DNA of 12,773 bases from a virus: UHGV virus genome UHGV-1672225; one strand, written 5' to 3'. Numbering within the stretch: the stretch's first letter is position 1; every line of letters begins with the position of its first letter. The position numbers and the translations under genes were made by a program. A model generated the notes under the pieces. It worked only from the letters and a program-made list of their open reading frames with translations. It did not search any database and had not been told where the DNA came from. This document shows positions 3,664 through 10,361 of this stretch, one piece after another.

Positions 3664-4025
3664 TTCAACTCCTCCCGACGACGTTCCTGAAGCTCTAGCA
3701 TTGCGGCTCGGAAATCCTGCCACCATTCCTCATCTGCAACGGGGGTGTTCCGCTCCAGCACCTTGTCCGCATCGGCGATCAGGTTTGCCAGAATCTTGTC
3801 TGAAATCTTCGTTACCGGAGTCGTTGGTTGCTCAACCTGCCCGATAGGTTTTATCGTGCTCAAAAGGAGGCGACGGCGGGAAAGTGGTGCCCCACAACGA
3901 CGGCCATCTTCCTTGCGATATGTTTCTTTCGGACCAACACACCAGGTTGTCGGCGTTTCGCGCAACTTCACTCTTTTCTCACCATCATTGGTAATGATTA
4001 TTCCGGTATGGGTTTTGATGCTCAT
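3660..4025 (-). CDS. Hypothetical protein (121 aa)
   Basis: ORF whose ATG overlaps the stop of the upstream wHTH gene (ATGA) and whose stop overlaps the ASCH gene start. Confidence 0.45.
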   Translation of the reverse strand: MSIKTHTGIIITNDGEKRVKLRETPTTWCVGPKETYRKEDGRRCGAPLSRRRLLLSTIKPIGQVEQPTTPVTKISDKILANLIADADKVLERNTPVADEEWWQDFRAAMLELQERRREELK

Positions 4026-4303
4026 GCCACAGCCCCTCTCAACGGCTTAACTTTGGCTAATAAGGTGTTAAACAACATGGAGTTAGGATTCATGCCAAAT
4101 GGCAATTCCGGTTTAGCGGAGTAGTACAGGCAACCATTTATTTTCCTAGTTGTTATCTGTCCTTCGGCAACCATGCTTCTCAGTCTGCAACGCATAGAGT
4201 TCTGCGACACACCAATGTGCTCCGCGATTACGTCCACTTTTGAACATGGGTGATCGGTCAGGAAATTAATCACATCTTGGGGGTTAATAATTTTGCGTTT
4301 CAT
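4022..4303 (-). CDS. Winged-helix DNA-binding protein, FaeA/PapI-like
   Basis: Start at ATG 4303 (AAGGA upstream) rather than 4324. The pattern INFLTDHP...VIAEHIGVSQNSMRCRLRSMVAEGQI resembles recalled PapI/FaeA-family regulators. Confidence 0.4.
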   Translation of the reverse strand: MKRKIINPQDVINFLTDHPCSKVDVIAEHIGVSQNSMRCRLRSMVAEGQITTRKINGCLYYSAKPELPFGMNPNSMLFNTLLAKVKPLRGAVA

Positions 4304-4348
4304 TGTCGAGGCGTCCTTATACATTTGTATAAATATATAATTCTATAT

Positions 4349-4370
4349 ACGGCGGGAGACGTCCCGCCGT
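4349..4370 (-). terminator. Perfect 9-bp GC-rich hairpin after the DUF3560-like gene (possible terminator or RNA stability element)
   Basis: ACGGCGGGA-gacg-TCCCGCCGT, 12 nt after the stop at 4381; the downstream minus-strand sequence is AT-rich but not a clean U-run. Confidence 0.4.
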
Positions 4371-4380
4371 AGGCTTACTG

Positions 4381-5448
4381 TCAGGCTTTCAATAGCGATT
4401 CTTTTAGATATCGGGCATCAGCCAGGGCGTTTGGAGTAATCTTGCGAACCCATGCATTACGGGTTGGACTCCACTTAAAGGCGCGTGATTTAAGCAGCGA
4501 ACGAATGTTTGCCTCTGGTTTGCCAGGGAAATAAAACAGGATGCGGTTATCCTCTGGATCTATCTCCATAGAAAAGCCGTCGTATTCTTCGCGCTGTGCT
4601 CCTGTTACAGACTTGACCGATTCAAGCTCCTTAATACGGCTCTGTAGTCGTTTGATTTCGGCGTTATTGTTGCTCAGTGCGTATGAAGGGAATCCGATGC
4701 GCCCACAGAAATCTCCGGCCAGTAACTCTTTGGCTTCGCTTTCTGTAAACCTGAGATCGATTAATGCAGAAAGCTGCTGTATTTGGTCTTTTTTGTATTT
4801 GCGAATGGCCTTATTTGCGGCCTTCATTTTGACGTGTGACTTCATGCAGCCTTGCAGCTTACGAAGCAACTTAAATAGCGCATCAGGATCATCAGACGAA
4901 ATTCCATTACGACCAACACCTGCGGCTTTGCTCTCGTAGTGTGATGCTTTACTTTCGCATTCAACAAACGCTTTTCTGAATAACGCATCAGCTTTAGACA
5001 AACGGCGGCGATGGCCTTTCGCGCTATAATGGTCAACTAAAATCGGCTGGCCTAACGGGATCACATCCAACAGGTCATGCGCTCGCTTATGCGCTACCGC
5101 ACCTTCTTTTCTGGCTTTTTCTGCACGAGCAATATATCGGGCAAGACGCGCGTTCTGGCGTTCCTGATAGGTGTTTACGTAATCATCTCCGCGCTGCTGC
5201 TGTTCAAGCCATGCTTTGCGCAGATCTTCTGTTACGTCCACCAGCTCCGCAGGGATACAACCAGTTTGGGCTTCATAAGAGTAACCATCCTCATAGATAC
5301 GCCCATCGTCTTCAACAAAGAAAAAGGTTTCGTGCTCATCGCTTTTGACCATACGACCATTAACATGGCGTAATAGGTAGCCAGTATCAGTGCTTAACAG
5401 GCTGTTAGGGTTGTTGATCCAGTCAGAAATAATTACTTGTTTATTCAT
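4381..5448 (-). CDS. DUF3560-like protein (355 aa), function unknown
   Basis: Start at ATG 5448 (GGAGA 7 nt upstream) rather than 5529. Central GQPILVDHYSAKGHRRRL resembles the recalled DUF3560 motif; long K/E-rich helical middle region. Confidence 0.45.
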   Translation of the reverse strand: MNKQVIISDWINNPNSLLSTDTGYLLRHVNGRMVKSDEHETFFFVEDDGRIYEDGYSYEAQTGCIPAELVDVTEDLRKAWLEQQQRGDDYVNTYQERQNARLARYIARAEKARKEGAVAHKRAHDLLDVIPLGQPILVDHYSAKGHRRRLSKADALFRKAFVECESKASHYESKAAGVGRNGISSDDPDALFKLLRKLQGCMKSHVKMKAANKAIRKYKKDQIQQLSALIDLRFTESEAKELLAGDFCGRIGFPSYALSNNNAEIKRLQSRIKELESVKSVTGAQREEYDGFSMEIDPEDNRILFYFPGKPEANIRSLLKSRAFKWSPTRNAWVRKITPNALADARYLKESLLKA

Positions 5449-5616
5449 CAGATTTCTCCGGTTTAACCAGGGCGGGTATCGCTCGGTTTCGGGTATAACA
5501 TAGGAAATTTTTTCCCACCTGTAAAGCACTTTTTATATAAATCTATAATTATATATTTATAGATTTTCGATGTTCCCGATGTCTACACACCATCAAAACA
5601 GCTCAAAATGACACTT

Positions 5617-5994
5617 TTACTCTCTTCGCTTTTTCAAATAGTCGACAACATACGCCCTGGCTTTTGCCAGCTTCCGGCGATACTGTCTGAGGCTAAGAGA
5701 AAGGGCGTGGGCTTTATCAATATGCGGTGCATTTATGTCGAGGCCCCGAATCTCCCACGCCCCGTATTCAATTCGGACAACCAGCGCCGCAGTCTCATCA
5801 ACTACCGTGAGGGCCGTCACCGCTCCCTCTATACTGGTTTCCAGTGAGTCATTTGGTGCGCCGCCCCCTCCGGTAAACTGGCAGCGCGTAACCATCATCA
5901 TTTCTAACATCGACGCGAAACCGCTACGGGCGTTGCAGCCATTGCGCACCCACAGCGCCCATAGCTCAAACAAGCTATCCAGATCGCGTCTCAC
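5617..5994 (-). CDS. Candidate Q-like antiterminator (Phage_antitermQ-type), GTG start
   Basis: 125 aa; N-terminal LFELWALW and C-terminal basic helix loosely resemble the small Q-like antiterminator family; sits at the end of the nin-like block. Weak call. Confidence 0.35.
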   Translation of the reverse strand: MRRDLDSLFELWALWVRNGCNARSGFASMLEMMMVTRCQFTGGGGAPNDSLETSIEGAVTALTVVDETAALVVRIEYGAWEIRGLDINAPHIDKAHALSLSLRQYRRKLAKARAYVVDYLKKRRE

Positions 5995-5997
5995 TGT

Positions 5998-6330
5998 TCA
6001 GATCTCCCGTATCGTGACGGGATAAAGCGCCTCTACCTGCTTTTTCTTCATGATGTAGACGTCTGTTCGCACACCTTTAGTGTCGACACAATCAATCGTC
6101 CCATCGTCATAAAACACCATGAAATCAAGTTTATAAACGACACCACCTGGCAGATGAAAAGGCACCTGCATAAGAAACGTCACAACGCGGCCAGCTTTTC
6201 TCAGTAGCTTCAGTTCGCAGTAGTAATCAGCCTCTTTTTTGCTATCAAAAGCGATATCATCGACAACCGTTTTTTTATTGCCGTATTTGCTTTTCCTTGT
6301 CGCTGGTTTGCGAAAGCCGGTATATCTCAT
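5998..6330 (-). CDS. DUF1064 family phage protein
   Basis: YGNKKTVVDDIAFDSKKEADYY matches the recalled DUF1064 signature; ATGA-coupled to the upstream Ref-like gene. Confidence 0.55.
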   Translation of the reverse strand: MRYTGFRKPATRKSKYGNKKTVVDDIAFDSKKEADYYCELKLLRKAGRVVTFLMQVPFHLPGGVVYKLDFMVFYDDGTIDCVDTKGVRTDVYIMKKKQVEALYPVTIREI

Positions 6331-6731
6331 TTGGTATCCCCTGGTACTTCACCAAGACTAAGATCAAACCCAATTTCGTCTTTAACTGACTGCGGCAACA
6401 GCTCCCACGTCTGCGCACACAAAAATTCATCTGTGCCATAACGCTCAACAAAGCGAGCACAATTACTCAGGGGAGGGTGACGAACGGCAATATGCGGAGG
6501 CACACGCCCACCACCAGGCACAACACCGCGATGATGTGGTGCGCACAACCCAAAGCTATGGAAGTGGCAATTCTCATCAACGCTGCCGTAATCAGGATCG
6601 TGATGTAGCTCCGTCCACAGCTCTGGATTCTCAATTTCACGGCCATCAATAATGCAAGCTATGCAACCCACGTGAGTGAGCACCGCTTGTATATAAAGTT
6701 TCTCTTTCTTCGTTGGTGTACGTCCGTTCAT
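6327..6731 (-). CDS. Ref-like recombination-enhancement HNH-type nuclease
   Basis: MNGRTPTKKEK...VGCIACII...HHDPDYG...GLCAPHHRG shows Cys/His spacing resembling the recalled P1 Ref-family/HNH pattern. Confidence 0.45.
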   Translation of the reverse strand: MNGRTPTKKEKLYIQAVLTHVGCIACIIDGREIENPELWTELHHDPDYGSVDENCHFHSFGLCAPHHRGVVPGGGRVPPHIAVRHPPLSNCARFVERYGTDEFLCAQTWELLPQSVKDEIGFDLSLGEVPGDTK

Positions 6732-7986: not shown

Positions 7987-8022
7987 ACCACGATACGTGG
8001 TATTAAAACCACATATCGTGAG
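7987..8022. promoter_or_regulatory. Two adjacent operator-like palindromes (ACCAC-N5-GTGGT type)
   Basis: ACCACGATACGTGGT at 7987-8001 is a perfect inverted repeat; ACCACATATCGTGAG at 8008-8022 is imperfect. Both are preceded by AAA. Confidence 0.55.
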
Positions 8023-8030
8023 TTTTTCAA
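8002..8030 (-). promoter_or_regulatory. pR-like sigma70 promoter for the leftward early operon
   Basis: On the minus strand TTGAAA (8030-8025), a 17-nt spacer, then TTTAAT (8007-8002); the spacer is operator B and the predicted start lies in operator A. Confidence 0.5.
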
Positions 8031-8089
8031 TGGGCGAAACAAAAAATAACCTTCTATTTGTGGTCCACCTCTCGTCTTACCATGTGAAA

Positions 8090-8104
8090 ACCACTAAATG
8101 TGGT
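8090..8104. promoter_or_regulatory. Operator-like palindrome on the repressor-proximal side
   Basis: ACCACTAAATGTGGT, a perfect 5-bp half-site inverted repeat about 40 bp upstream of the CI-like start. Confidence 0.5.
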
Positions 8105-8141: not shown

Positions 8142-8798
8142 ATGAAAAGCAACGACGAGAACATCAAGAAAGAAATAGGTCTGCGCATTCAGACTCTACG
8201 GAAACAATCCGGCATGACTGCCGGAGATCTCCAGCAAGTCACTGGAATAGGCTTAAGCACCTTGCAGAACTATGAGGCCGGATTAAGACAACCATCTATA
8301 CCTGCCATCAAGAAAATCGCGCACGCCCTGAAAGCATCAGCGCCTTATATCGCGTGCTTAACAGATAACCCGTTCCCACCCCAGAATACTAACGCTCCTG
8401 TTATTCCTGGGCTTGTAGCTATAAAAAATGACATAGCATCGCACGCCGGAGAAAAGCCAGTGCTGGCGATAGAACAGGAGATTCTACGAAGCAAGAACAT
8501 CAACCCATCGTCTCTGTCAGTTCTCCAGAGCAACGATGAGTTAATGTCACCAACAATATCCCCAGGCTCCCAAGTCCTGATTAATACAGACGATACAGAG
8601 ATTCATGAGGGGATCTATGCCCTTGAAGACAGAAATGGCCTGGTTGTTTTGAGGCACTGTAGAGTCATACCGGGTGACAATGCTGTTATGCTGTCAACCG
8701 AAAGGGATGCTGAAATGAACACTAAGCATCTGAATAACGAGGAATTTAAGCGTTATAAAGTTCTTGGCCGCGTAGTTAGTGTTGTCAACTGGTTATGA
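8142..8798 (+). CDS. CI-like phage repressor (XRE-type HTH plus S24 LexA-like peptidase domain)
   Basis: N-terminal LRIQTLRKQSGMTAGDLQQVTGIGLSTLQNYEAG is HTH-like; the C-terminal 100 aa has an S24-like fold pattern; divergent from the Cro-like gene. Confidence 0.7.
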   Translation: MKSNDENIKKEIGLRIQTLRKQSGMTAGDLQQVTGIGLSTLQNYEAGLRQPSIPAIKKIAHALKASAPYIACLTDNPFPPQNTNAPVIPGLVAIKNDIASHAGEKPVLAIEQEILRSKNINPSSLSVLQSNDELMSPTISPGSQVLINTDDTEIHEGIYALEDRNGLVVLRHCRVIPGDNAVMLSTERDAEMNTKHLNNEEFKRYKVLGRVVSVVNWL

Positions 8799-8822: not shown

Positions 8823-8840
8823 ATTTCTACGCTCAAAAAA

Positions 8841-8855
8841 ACCACATTTTGTGGT
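8841..8855. promoter_or_regulatory. Fourth operator-like palindrome, downstream of the CI-like gene
   Basis: ACCACATTTTGTGGT, same half-sites as the switch-region sites; a TTGACA lies 2 bp downstream at 8857-8862. Confidence 0.5.
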
Positions 8856-8890
8856 TTTGACAACATGTAAAAGTATAAAAGAGGCTACGC

Positions 8891-9269: not shown

Positions 9270-9289
9270 AAGCGGGCTAACGCCCGCTT
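9270..9289 (+). terminator. Intrinsic terminator-like hairpin after the 124-aa gene
   Basis: AAGCGGGC-taac-GCCCGCTT, 8-bp stem, followed by AT-rich sequence. Confidence 0.45.
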
Positions 9290-9290
9290 A

Positions 9291-9392
9291 TATGATTATA
9301 GATTTATATAATTATATAAAACGCTTTTCATCAGCCAAAAAGTTGGTTATGCTTACCTCGTTCTATAAATATAGATTTATAGAATTATATAA
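9291..9392. promoter_or_regulatory. AT-rich arrays with TATA boxes at 8-bp phase upstream of parA (candidate operator or centromere-like site)
   Basis: 9296-9321 TTATAGATTTATATAATTATATAAAA and 9361-9392 TTCTATAAATATAGATTTATAGAATTATATAA; the second also contains the palindrome TCTATA-AA-TATAGA. Confidence 0.4.
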
Positions 9393-9415
9393 CCAAACAC
9401 ATGGAGTCTCGACAA

Positions 9416-10069
9416 ATGACTATCTCTGTAGGTATTTTCAACGGAAAAGGCGGCGTAACAAAATCAACAATTGCCCGTGCTTTAGCAGTTGCTTATGCAA
9501 AGGCTGGCTGGAATGTATGCCTGATCGATATGGATGTGCTTAACGGAACGGTAACGCGTTGGGTACAACGCAGAATGGCCAACAATATCGAACCAGCAAT
9601 CGCGGCGCAGCCGTGCGGCACACCATCACAAGTCCAGAAAATCATCGAATCAGAAGTATACGACCTGGTTATCGTCGATGGCGGTGCCTACGCATCTGAA
9701 TCAGTACCGAAGCTATCTGAATTTCTGGATATGGTTATTTTGCCAACCCGATTCTCTACCGATGACCTGGAAACCACCGTTAACACTGCTCACGGCATCG
9801 TTAAAAAGGGTGTACCAATCAAGAAAATTTGCATGGTGTTTTCCGGCGCGGCTGAAAACGAAGCTGACTATATTGAAGCCCAAGAGTACCTGGCTAATAC
9901 GCCATACTTTGTTGTCGATAAGTACATTCCCCACAAGCCAGCTCTGAGCAAAGCTCAGGATAAGGGCTTAAGCCTCATTGAGTGCTCATACGTTGCGCCA
10001 CGCAAAAAGGCAGACGACGTTATTCAGGGGATTATCAACCAGCTTGAGGCTCTGACTACTGCCGCATAA
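9416..10069 (+). CDS. parA: Small ParA-family (deviant Walker A) ATPase, type Ib partition-like
   Basis: Start at ATG 9416 (GGAG 10 nt upstream) rather than 9401. Deviant Walker A GKGGVTKST, Walker B-like DLVIVDG, about 217 aa. Confidence 0.65.
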   Translation: MTISVGIFNGKGGVTKSTIARALAVAYAKAGWNVCLIDMDVLNGTVTRWVQRRMANNIEPAIAAQPCGTPSQVQKIIESEVYDLVIVDGGAYASESVPKLSEFLDMVILPTRFSTDDLETTVNTAHGIVKKGVPIKKICMVFSGAAENEADYIEAQEYLANTPYFVVDKYIPHKPALSKAQDKGLSLIECSYVAPRKKADDVIQGIINQLEALTTAA

Positions 10070-10100
10070 TATATAATTATAGTTTTATAGATTTATATAA
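10066..10100. promoter_or_regulatory. Third TATA-phased AT-rich array between parA and the RHH gene
   Basis: TATAtaatTATAgtttTATAgattTATAtaag: four TATA boxes at exact 8-bp spacing, overlapping the parA stop. Confidence 0.4.
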
Positions 10101-10112
10101 GAGGGGATACAC

Positions 10113-10361
10113 ATGGCCGCACCATCAAAACCACCAAAGAAGAACAGCAAAGGCGTACCGCCATCGATCGAACAACCGCAGGTTTTCGACCCGACTGAAA
10201 CGCCAACCAGAACCAAATCAGGTGGGGCACAAATGGCGTTTAACGTCGACCCTGAATTTAAACGCGAGTACAAAACGTTCGCCAGCTCAATGGATATGTC
10301 ATTGAAAGAAGTGCTGACAAAGTCTTTTGAGTTACTCAAGGCTCAATACAACCAGAAGTAA
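10113..10361 (+). CDS. Ribbon-helix-helix DNA-binding protein, ParG-like partner of ParA
   Basis: 82 aa; flexible basic N-terminal tail, then MAFNVDPEFKREYKTFASSMDMSLKEVLTKSFELLKAQ with a beta-strand/helix/helix pattern; AAGAGGGGA RBS. Confidence 0.5.
   Translation: MAAPSKPPKKNSKGVPPSIEQPQVFDPTETPTRTKSGGAQMAFNVDPEFKREYKTFASSMDMSLKEVLTKSFELLKAQYNQK

Follow-up and report, generated by a model that had tools for sequence, protein, structure and literature searches.

A DUF3560-family protein of an Escherichia coli phage-plasmid as a possible nucleic-acid-binding establishment or anti-defence factor

The stretch of DNA considered here (the window, 12,773 nt of the UHGV virus genome UHGV-1672225) is part of a 47-49 kb Escherichia coli phage-plasmid, and the gene under study lies on its minus strand at 4381..5448. 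The product is a protein of 355 amino acids (aa) that, judged by profile match and virtually beyond doubt, belongs to the DUF3560 family. An analysis of the protein, its relatives and its surroundings favoured, at a probability of roughly 45%, a nucleic-acid-binding accessory protein that would act on the element's incoming DNA in establishment or against host defence. Read in the direction of transcription, with the parts of the protein set below the gene that encodes them, the features of the locus are as follows.

5533..5564, minus strand: upstream array of TATA boxes with 8-bp phasing, directly upstream of the -35 hexamer
5497..5525, minus strand: sigma-70-like promoter by consensus match, TTTACA-17 nt-TATGTT, with the palindrome GGAAAAAATTTCC (5503-5515) in the spacer
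5449..5496, minus strand: conserved leader of ~45 nt with the Shine-Dalgarno sequence GGAG (5456-5459), defined from the cassette copies described below; weak predicted structure, z -2.4
4381..5448, minus strand: coding sequence of the DUF3560-family protein, 355 aa plus stop; identical to RefSeq WP_016240767.1 and matching PHROG 6744 over its full length (E 4e-234)
5176..5448, minus strand: N-terminal domain, aa 1-91, small, beta-rich in the AlphaFold2 model and acidic (isoelectric point, pI, 4.3); not present in core-only homologues of ~265 aa
4801..5169, minus strand: Pfam DUF3560 domain, aa 94-216, basic (pI 10.2), with three helices and two conserved loops (from Pfam, the alignment and AlphaFold2)
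4384..4800, minus strand: conserved C-terminal module, aa 217-355, made up of helices 222-281 and an alpha/beta domain 283-355 (window 4384-4602); defined from the alignment, no Pfam model covering it
4348..4371, minus strand: predicted hairpin that begins 10 nt beyond the stop codon, with a perfect 10-bp stem (7 G-C) and a loop of 4 nt (-19 kcal/mol, z -3.5)
4309..4348, minus strand: downstream TATA array, just ahead of the ribosome-binding site of the following gene (4022..4303, for a MarR/FaeA-like winged-helix protein)

The list of open reading frames (ORFs) holds a longer frame, 4381..5529 on the minus strand with a GTG start, inside which the ATG at 5448 is the sensible start: GGAG stands before it at 5459-5456, the frame read from it gives 355 aa and a stop, and the identical protein in RefSeq uses the same ATG and is annotated DUF3560. 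The length and position proposed in the initial annotation were thereby found to be exact. The region is matched at 99.4-99.8% identity by 62 PLSDB plasmids of about 47-50 kb, 61 of them from Escherichia and 59 non-mobilizable, and also by three Yersinia pestis phages isolated from plaques (vB_YpM_39, vB_YpM_41 and vB_YpM_44). The full record NZ_LR130559.1 comprises a contractile-tail virion module, terminase and lysis genes, a cI-like repressor, a small ParA, a RelE/ParE toxin and a separate plasmid repA, and the element is therefore a phage-plasmid. It is non-mobilizable and has neither an origin of transfer (oriT) nor a relaxase, and a position on the leading side of oriT, co-oriented with ssb, psiB and ardA, is found for homologues of the gene only. 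Among 5426 complete E. coli genomes the gene is carried by 71, with 74 of its 75 locations on plasmids. A copy that is 99.3% identical resides on the 48,488-bp plasmid NZ_CP158444.1 of the quality-control strain E. coli ATCC 25922.

The family assignment proposed in the initial annotation was borne out by a Pfam search: PF12083 (DUF3560) matches aa 94-216 with E 3.7e-31 and 108.2 bits, against a gathering cut-off of 27.2, and covers profile positions 2-124 of 124. What was found is thus a DUF3560 match, and not clear homology to a characterised replication or morphogenesis protein. An AlphaFold2 model built on an alignment of 113 sequences (predicted local distance difference test score, pLDDT, 93.9) has long helices at aa 93-128, 141-177, 190-217 and 255-281, in keeping with the long charged helical region that had been noticed in the translation. 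The N-terminal part is modelled as a small beta-rich domain of aa 1-62 (strands 17-53) followed by a helix to about aa 85, and the C-terminal part as an alpha/beta domain at aa 285-354. Both family-wide loops of the DUF3560 domain, G-Q-P-I-L-x-G-H-x-S-E...R and G-I-S-S-D-D-P, are present in the protein; across the 113 sequences Q134, P135, H140, S142 and R147 are invariant in loop 1 (IPLGQPILVDHYS), as are S184, D187 and P188 in loop 2 (GISSDDPDA). A possible 'HxS..HRRR' motif had been pointed out in this region; it is there as DHYSAKGHRRR at aa 139-149, but conservation singles out H140, S142 and R147, whereas H146, R148 and R149 vary.

Most homologues are only ~265 aa long, beginning at the equivalent of aa 92 and continuing to the C-terminus, which indicates that the true family core spans aa 92-355 and that Pfam models only its first half. 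Over aa 217-355 the protein follows the family pattern (NNNA..R..RI..L; NR..F.F.GKP...R..LK..F.WSP.R.AWVR), with N301, R302, F305, F307 and R335 invariant and W326 and W333 conserved. The family core is basic, with a mean pI of 9.4 over 75 core-only members, and the strands of the C-terminal domain carry the family-conserved residues R302, K310, R316, K320, W326, R330, W333 and R335, a set that would suit a nucleic-acid-binding surface. In the model, the fold of this domain appears to resemble that of the C-terminal DNA-binding domain of T4 MotA, the likeness being one of fold and not of homology. That the protein binds nucleic acid is considered probable.

The N-terminal domain stands apart from this core. 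It is restricted to an enterobacterial subgroup made up of plasmid and phage-plasmid members, and the N-terminal 92 aa, used as a query for homologues, returned only fragments of the same protein and no other domain architectures. The isolated N- and C-terminal pieces had no match in Pfam, and a profile of the N-terminus proved unrelated to the N-termini of the ArdC_N type (hhalign probability 0.2%).

The DUF3560 profile retrieves 9050 cluster representatives (clustered at 50% identity) at E ≤ 0.001 and 3100 at E ≤ 1e-30, and three independent kinds of association (fusions, neighbourhoods and published statistics) agree in pointing towards establishment and anti-restriction functions. Fusions of the types ArdC_N + DUF3560 and LPD30 + LPD29 + DUF3560 occur among them, and seven giant homologues that were scanned include four with a complete ArdC (ArdC_N plus MPTase-PolyVal zincin), two with a ddrB-type ParB and one with a Pol III beta-clamp domain. 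In addition, aa 174-349 of the window protein are homologous (38% identity, E 1e-24) to the end module of ~170 aa of a 1306-aa Tn1549-type polyvalent protein on the Enterococcus faecium plasmid CP063543.1 (2758-6678); this protein also contains ArdA, ArdC_N, M78 peptidase, LPD25, YodL and DUF4316, and its end module has no Pfam model. ArdC is reported in PMC7213743 to counter restriction within the recipient cell.

The neighbourhoods are of the same kind. Of 432 plasmids with a DUF3560 match, 232 are conjugative. A Serratia plasmid carries, in a leading region of the F type, a full-length homologue that is 56% identical and has the same N-terminal domain, the order of genes being ssb, parB-like, psiB, psiA ... 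DUF3560, DUF932, SLT, then oriT and traM. A Xenorhabdus homologue adjoins ArdA, an LPD29 protein and a TrwC relaxase, while a copy on a Pseudomonas plasmid lies directly upstream of AcrE1, AcrF3 and another AcrF. Elsewhere the neighbours are SSB with an orphan methylase, RadC/KleA/KorA, ArdC with a ligase in a phage contig, and a DnaB-type helicase. Supplementary file 3 of Samuel et al. 2024 (PMC11541004) lists DUF3560/'YdbA' as family 28, with 1913 members, and describes it as uncharacterised; the same source finds it significantly enriched in leading regions, with a median distance to oriT of 12 genes. The IncF-type YdbA proteins themselves are too divergent to be detected by tblastn, and the leading region of the F plasmid has no annotated DUF3560 gene. 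In other papers DUF3560 appears as a CRISPR-spacer target, or as a ciprofloxacin-induced gene of pO157 beside ssb.

A number of more specific labels were considered and set aside. A DNA-mimic anti-restriction protein of the ArdA/Ocr type was rejected on account of the basic character of the family, since an acidic mimic does not fit a core with a mean pI of 9.4. The names 'Hydrolase / HD superfamily hydrolase', given by UniProt for YdbA in the PMC11541004 supplement, have no Pfam HD-domain match behind them; H is followed by D just once in the protein, at aa 124-125, and this pair varies among homologues. A likeness of 'GxPILVGHNS' to the DEDDh exonuclease motif (E 0.33) was taken as chance. 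Sequence and profile searches of the PDB gave no match better than E 0.28, NCBIfam had no match to the protein, and the PADLOC defence-system models returned 0 families for the protein and seven neighbours. In the databases, a 268-aa core-only DUF3560 protein of the PromA plasmid pYKBM023 (LC623921.1 4059-4865) has been deposited as 'ArdC' although it has no ArdC_N or protease domain, a name that could mislead annotation transfer.

The gene appears to be a transcription unit of its own. On the minus strand the ATG is preceded in order by the array, TTTACA, the 17-nt spacer, TATGTT, the leader of ~45 nt and GGAG, and the element has three copies of this array-promoter-leader cassette of ~110 nt, identical at 105-106 of 110 positions (window 5438-5567; NZ_LR130559.1 27566-27695, 34442-34571 and 43142-43271). 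The general layout is a TATA array, TTTACA-17-TATGGT with GGAAAAAATTTCC in the spacer, the leader and GGAG, the window copy reading TATGTT through a 1-nt deletion in the -10 region; the two other copies precede genes of unknown function (PHROG 6143 and 8090). The GC hairpin that had been noticed after the gene is real and measures ten perfect pairs, and it may be terminator-like or RNA-stabilising; it is trailed by A/U-rich sequence and has no canonical U-tract, which is why the terminator scan passed it over. The promoter, palindrome, leader, hairpin and both arrays are all kept in a phage-plasmid of Klebsiella aerogenes, where the protein is only 70% identical, the stem of the hairpin being retained and its loop differing. 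The suggestion that this is a discrete unit and not a structural gene is thus in line with the promoter-like cassette upstream and the hairpin downstream, both kept in this relative.

The arrays extend well beyond the gene. The pattern TATA-N4-TATA-N4-TATA, with at most one mismatch, has 14 matches in the window against 0.02 expected, and these form five clusters, of which a pattern scan placed the following around parA.

9288-9319, 9353-9400 and 10069-10108: further TATA arrays around parA (9401..10069)

Eight arrays are found in the whole element; two are upstream of parA and one lies between parA, which encodes a small ParA of 222 aa, and an ORF of 82 aa that follows it (10113..10361, plus strand). 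Others precede unrelated genes, namely the MT-A70 methylase region outside the window, the MarR-like gene and the cassette at 43.2 kb. The bracketing of the DUF3560 gene by TATA-phased arrays, which the initial annotation had stressed, is therefore genuine at 4309-4348 and 5533-5564 but not particular to this gene: as the arrays also flank the partition genes and other units, they constitute an element-wide regulatory or centromere-type repeat. The idea, suggested by the flanking arrays, of an iteron-bracketed replication initiator was rejected in view of the separate repA and of the arrays flanking parA and unrelated genes.

The 82-aa product begins with a basic tail rich in proline, shows a strand-helix-helix pattern (MAFNVDPEFKREYKTFASSMDMSLKEVLTKSFELLKA) towards its C-terminus, and is probably a ribbon-helix-helix partner of ParA. 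The ribbon-helix-helix partition protein ParG of TP228 is described in PMC3130281 as binding parH, which consists of phased arrays of tetramer boxes with AT-rich spacers. From this precedent and the arrays around parA it is inferred that one array-binding protein might coordinate the DUF3560 gene with the partition operon and some further units. Control of the DUF3560 gene by a partition-type array binder is a tentative proposal, and a rather doubtful one. Partition and ribbon-helix-helix proteins do act as global repressors of establishment genes, as with KorB of IncP plasmids and Omega of pSM19035.

Put together, the favoured reading would work as follows. The gene would be one of the accessory genes for 'establishment / anti-defence' that mobile elements have in common and that are expressed soon after the DNA of such an element enters a cell. 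Its basic helical DUF3560 domain and its MotA-like C-terminal beta-sheet domain, with the conserved arginine, lysine and tryptophan residues, would bind nucleic acid, most likely the element's incoming DNA, and this binding would shield it against barriers raised by the host, for instance restriction or attack by nucleases, or aid its processing. The acidic N-terminal domain would serve as a lineage-specific adaptor, at the position held in other family members by the single-stranded-DNA-binding ArdC_N. The gene would be transcribed as a monocistronic unit, from the array-flanked sigma-70-type promoter/leader cassette to the hairpin; an array-binding protein, probably the ParG-like 82-aa product of 10113..10361, would keep its expression low while the element is established as a plasmid, and a burst would follow when the element enters a naive cell.

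Several points weigh against such a role. The leading-region context of the homologues cannot be transferred directly to a phage-plasmid, which lacks such a region, and the protein has neither ArdC_N nor any metalloprotease motif by Pfam and a check of its sequence. The family has 20 invariant alignment columns, H, S, R, D, K and N among them, and these could equally mark the active site of an enzyme; K193, N212 and R271 belong to this set in addition to the residues named above. The structural alignment with MotA has only 7-8% identity and a high root mean square deviation for a fragment model, and a Foldseek search gave nothing significant. The 82-aa ORF has no Pfam or PDB match, falls into PHROG 6024 of unknown function and is like a ribbon-helix-helix protein by its sequence pattern only; the promoter is a consensus match only (one found against 3.3 expected in shuffles), and the hairpin is without a U-tract. 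Literature searches (the Yersinia phages, PF12083, YdbA function) gave nothing useful and no experimental study of any DUF3560 protein, and the functional assignment is thus one by association.

The rival that survives best is an accessory of DNA metabolism, i.e., of replication, recombination or repair, where the protein would, for example, assist priming, associate with the clamp, or act as mediator together with the Ref nuclease and the DUF1064 protein. The gene does lie in the early-left operon region of the element, downstream of genes for a Ref-family nuclease and a DUF1064 protein, and, plasmid repA apart, the element has no recognisable lytic replication gene. SSB, RadC, DNA ligase and a DnaB-type helicase occur near homologues, the fusion to a Pol III beta-clamp domain is seen in one of them, and PHROG 19458, labelled 'primase', matches aa 173-351 with E 3e-37. 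This label, however, was traced to a 306-aa protein of the Faecalibacterium phage FP_Toutatis that has no Pfam primase domain; as neither this protein nor the window protein contains a Toprim/DnaG, AEP or TraC-type domain, 'primase' was rejected as an annotation carry-over. Pfam and NCBIfam gave no Toprim, AEP or DnaG match for the window protein, the PDB profile search was empty, and the recurrent fusion partners of the family are anti-restriction modules and not replication enzymes, which leaves a role in DNA metabolism unlikely.

The apparent likeness to MotA raises the further prospect of a transcription factor, in which the C-terminal double-wing-like domain would sit on a promoter element, such as the GGAAA-N3-TTTCC palindrome or one of the TATA arrays, while RNA polymerase would be contacted through the helical part and middle or late genes would be switched on. 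Such a factor would fit the fold match, the place of the gene at the boundary between early genes and the block towards the holin and lysin genes, and the palindrome-bearing promoter cassette repeated three times in the element. The identity of 7-8% is low, though, and neither an equivalent of the MotA N-terminal domain nor a Pfam match was found. The family resides mostly in conjugative plasmids and polyvalent proteins, where an activator of phage middle genes makes little sense, and most of its members are cores standing on their own, spread over many unrelated elements whose promoters are likewise unrelated. The chances of a MotA-like role were accordingly put as slim.

Just as improbable is an accessory of plasmid maintenance or partition, a KfrA-like coiled-coil DNA-binding protein acting with ParA and the array binder, for which the arrays would be extra centromere sites and not operators. 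Arrays that bracket the gene and also surround parA, the long helical architecture, and the relatives at partition loci (a PromA-type homologue between kleA and kfrA/ssb/korA-incC-korB, and a Dickeya homologue beside ParA/KorB/KorA) speak in its favor. Against it, the same arrays also stand before the unrelated MT-A70 region, MarR-like gene and 43.2-kb cassette; the family has representatives in virulent-looking phage contigs and in polyvalent proteins that have no partition role; and Pfam detects no similarity to KfrA. A virion, morphogenesis or lysis component is effectively excluded, since its one favourable circumstance, the position upstream of the same-strand holin and endolysin genes, is outweighed by the separate 23-kb block of NZ_LR130559.1 that holds the head, tail and terminase genes, by the lack of a structural-protein match in PHROGs or Pfam, and by the closest full-length homologues being those of conjugative plasmids.

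The establishment or anti-defence reading can also be carried further, to a version that is itself unlikely. The DUF3560 core would then be a previously unrecognised DNA-binding anti-restriction or establishment effector, interchangeable or cooperating with the ArdC metalloprotease, and its gene would share a 'zygotic-induction' regulon with two or more further genes that stand behind a near-identical cassette, a regulon that the ParG-like protein bound to the TATA arrays would repress. If that were true, a phage-plasmid would have rebuilt the logic of the plasmid leading region without conjugation. If array-based control alone were true, it would reveal a way in which establishment genes of a phage-plasmid are tied to its partition proteins.

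Some observations concern the surrounding genes. For the neighbour at 5617..5994 on the minus strand, a 125-aa ORF that had been called 'Q-like', no similarity could be detected either to the Q antiterminator families or to any solved structure of Q, and the call was dropped; the ORF has no Pfam, PDB or PADLOC match, belongs to PHROG 5285 of unknown function, and all of its 92 phage homologues, mostly from Vibrio phages, are annotated 'hypothetical protein'. Just upstream of this ORF and the DUF3560 gene lie the gene for the Ref-family (RecA-dependent) nuclease (6327-6731, minus strand) and then the DUF1064 gene (5998-6330, minus strand), a pairing that is also found in the K. aerogenes relative. 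The MarR/FaeA-like gene and parA share an unusual translation-initiation region, GGA(C/G)-N-CTCGACAA(A)TG, which follows directly after an array (window 4303-4320 and 9401-9420), is conserved in the K. aerogenes relative as well, and may be a common translational or operator element. Around the gene for the cI-like helix-turn-helix/peptidase repressor (8142..8798) there are three AAACCACA-N-TGTGGTTT palindromes (8005-8030, 8083-8104 and 8838-8863), of which two fall within the divergent promoter region and the third a little way downstream of the gene, and these are probably the operators of the repressor.

The protein, its family label and the enrichment of the family among plasmid establishment genes are already present in public databases and the literature; the DUF3560 assignment is a correct annotation and not a discovery. 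What the analysis adds is the true extent of the conserved core, the apparently MotA-like C-terminal fold, the systematic link to polyvalent proteins with ArdA and ArdC, and the array-flanked promoter cassette repeated three times. DUF3560/YdbA is among the largest uncharacterised gene families in the leading regions of conjugative plasmids, which often carry resistance. The phage-plasmid copy is experimentally convenient, being monocistronic, equipped with a defined promoter cassette, and present both in the reference strain ATCC 25922 and in plaque-forming Yersinia phages, so that a knockout and a DNA-binding test made here could give the whole family a function.

Among known systems, the leading-region family DUF3560/'YdbA' is the closest, the likeness being direct membership by hidden Markov model, the same conserved loops and the same C-terminal module. 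The window protein differs from it in residing on a non-conjugative phage-plasmid with no oriT or leading region, in its extra acidic N-terminal domain, which is missing from most members, and in its own array-flanked promoter cassette. The comparison with ArdC of R388, described in PMC7213743 as a single-stranded-DNA-binding ArdC_N domain joined to a zincin metalloprotease, is more indirect: ArdC_N, or the whole of ArdC, recurs as a fusion partner of the DUF3560 core within one polypeptide, and the two share the genomic niche of early or establishment genes. The window protein, in contrast, has no match to ArdC_N (PF08401), MPTase-PolyVal or M78 and no HExxH; it is therefore not an ArdC and would at most be a functional partner of ArdC or an alternative effector.

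In the polyvalent proteins the core, or its C-terminal half, is a module of proteins of 0.8-1.7 kaa (thousand amino acids) that also contain ArdA, ArdC, M78 peptidase, LPD25/29/30, YodL and ddrB-ParB, whereas the window holds a stand-alone version of 355 aa and not a giant. Such proteins of phages and conjugative elements were reportedly treated by Iyer, Burroughs, Anand, de Souza and Aravind in 2017. The 'double-wing' domain at the C-terminus of T4 MotA (PDB 1KAF, 5JLT and 6K4Y) has six strands where five are modelled here, the two being 7-8% identical, and neither a MotA N-terminal domain nor evidence of sigma appropriation was found for the window protein. In relation to the type Ib system ParF-ParG-parH of TP228, the boxes are TATA here as opposed to ACTC, and the 82-aa protein, with no Pfam or PDB match, is only a putative binder. 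The two are alike in having a small ParA followed by a small ORF with a ribbon-helix-helix-like pattern, and phased arrays of short boxes with AT-rich spacers around both. The element here also has similar arrays before several other transcription units, and taken as a whole the arrays look like a centromere or operator system of the ParG/parH type that has been reused at several of the element's promoters.

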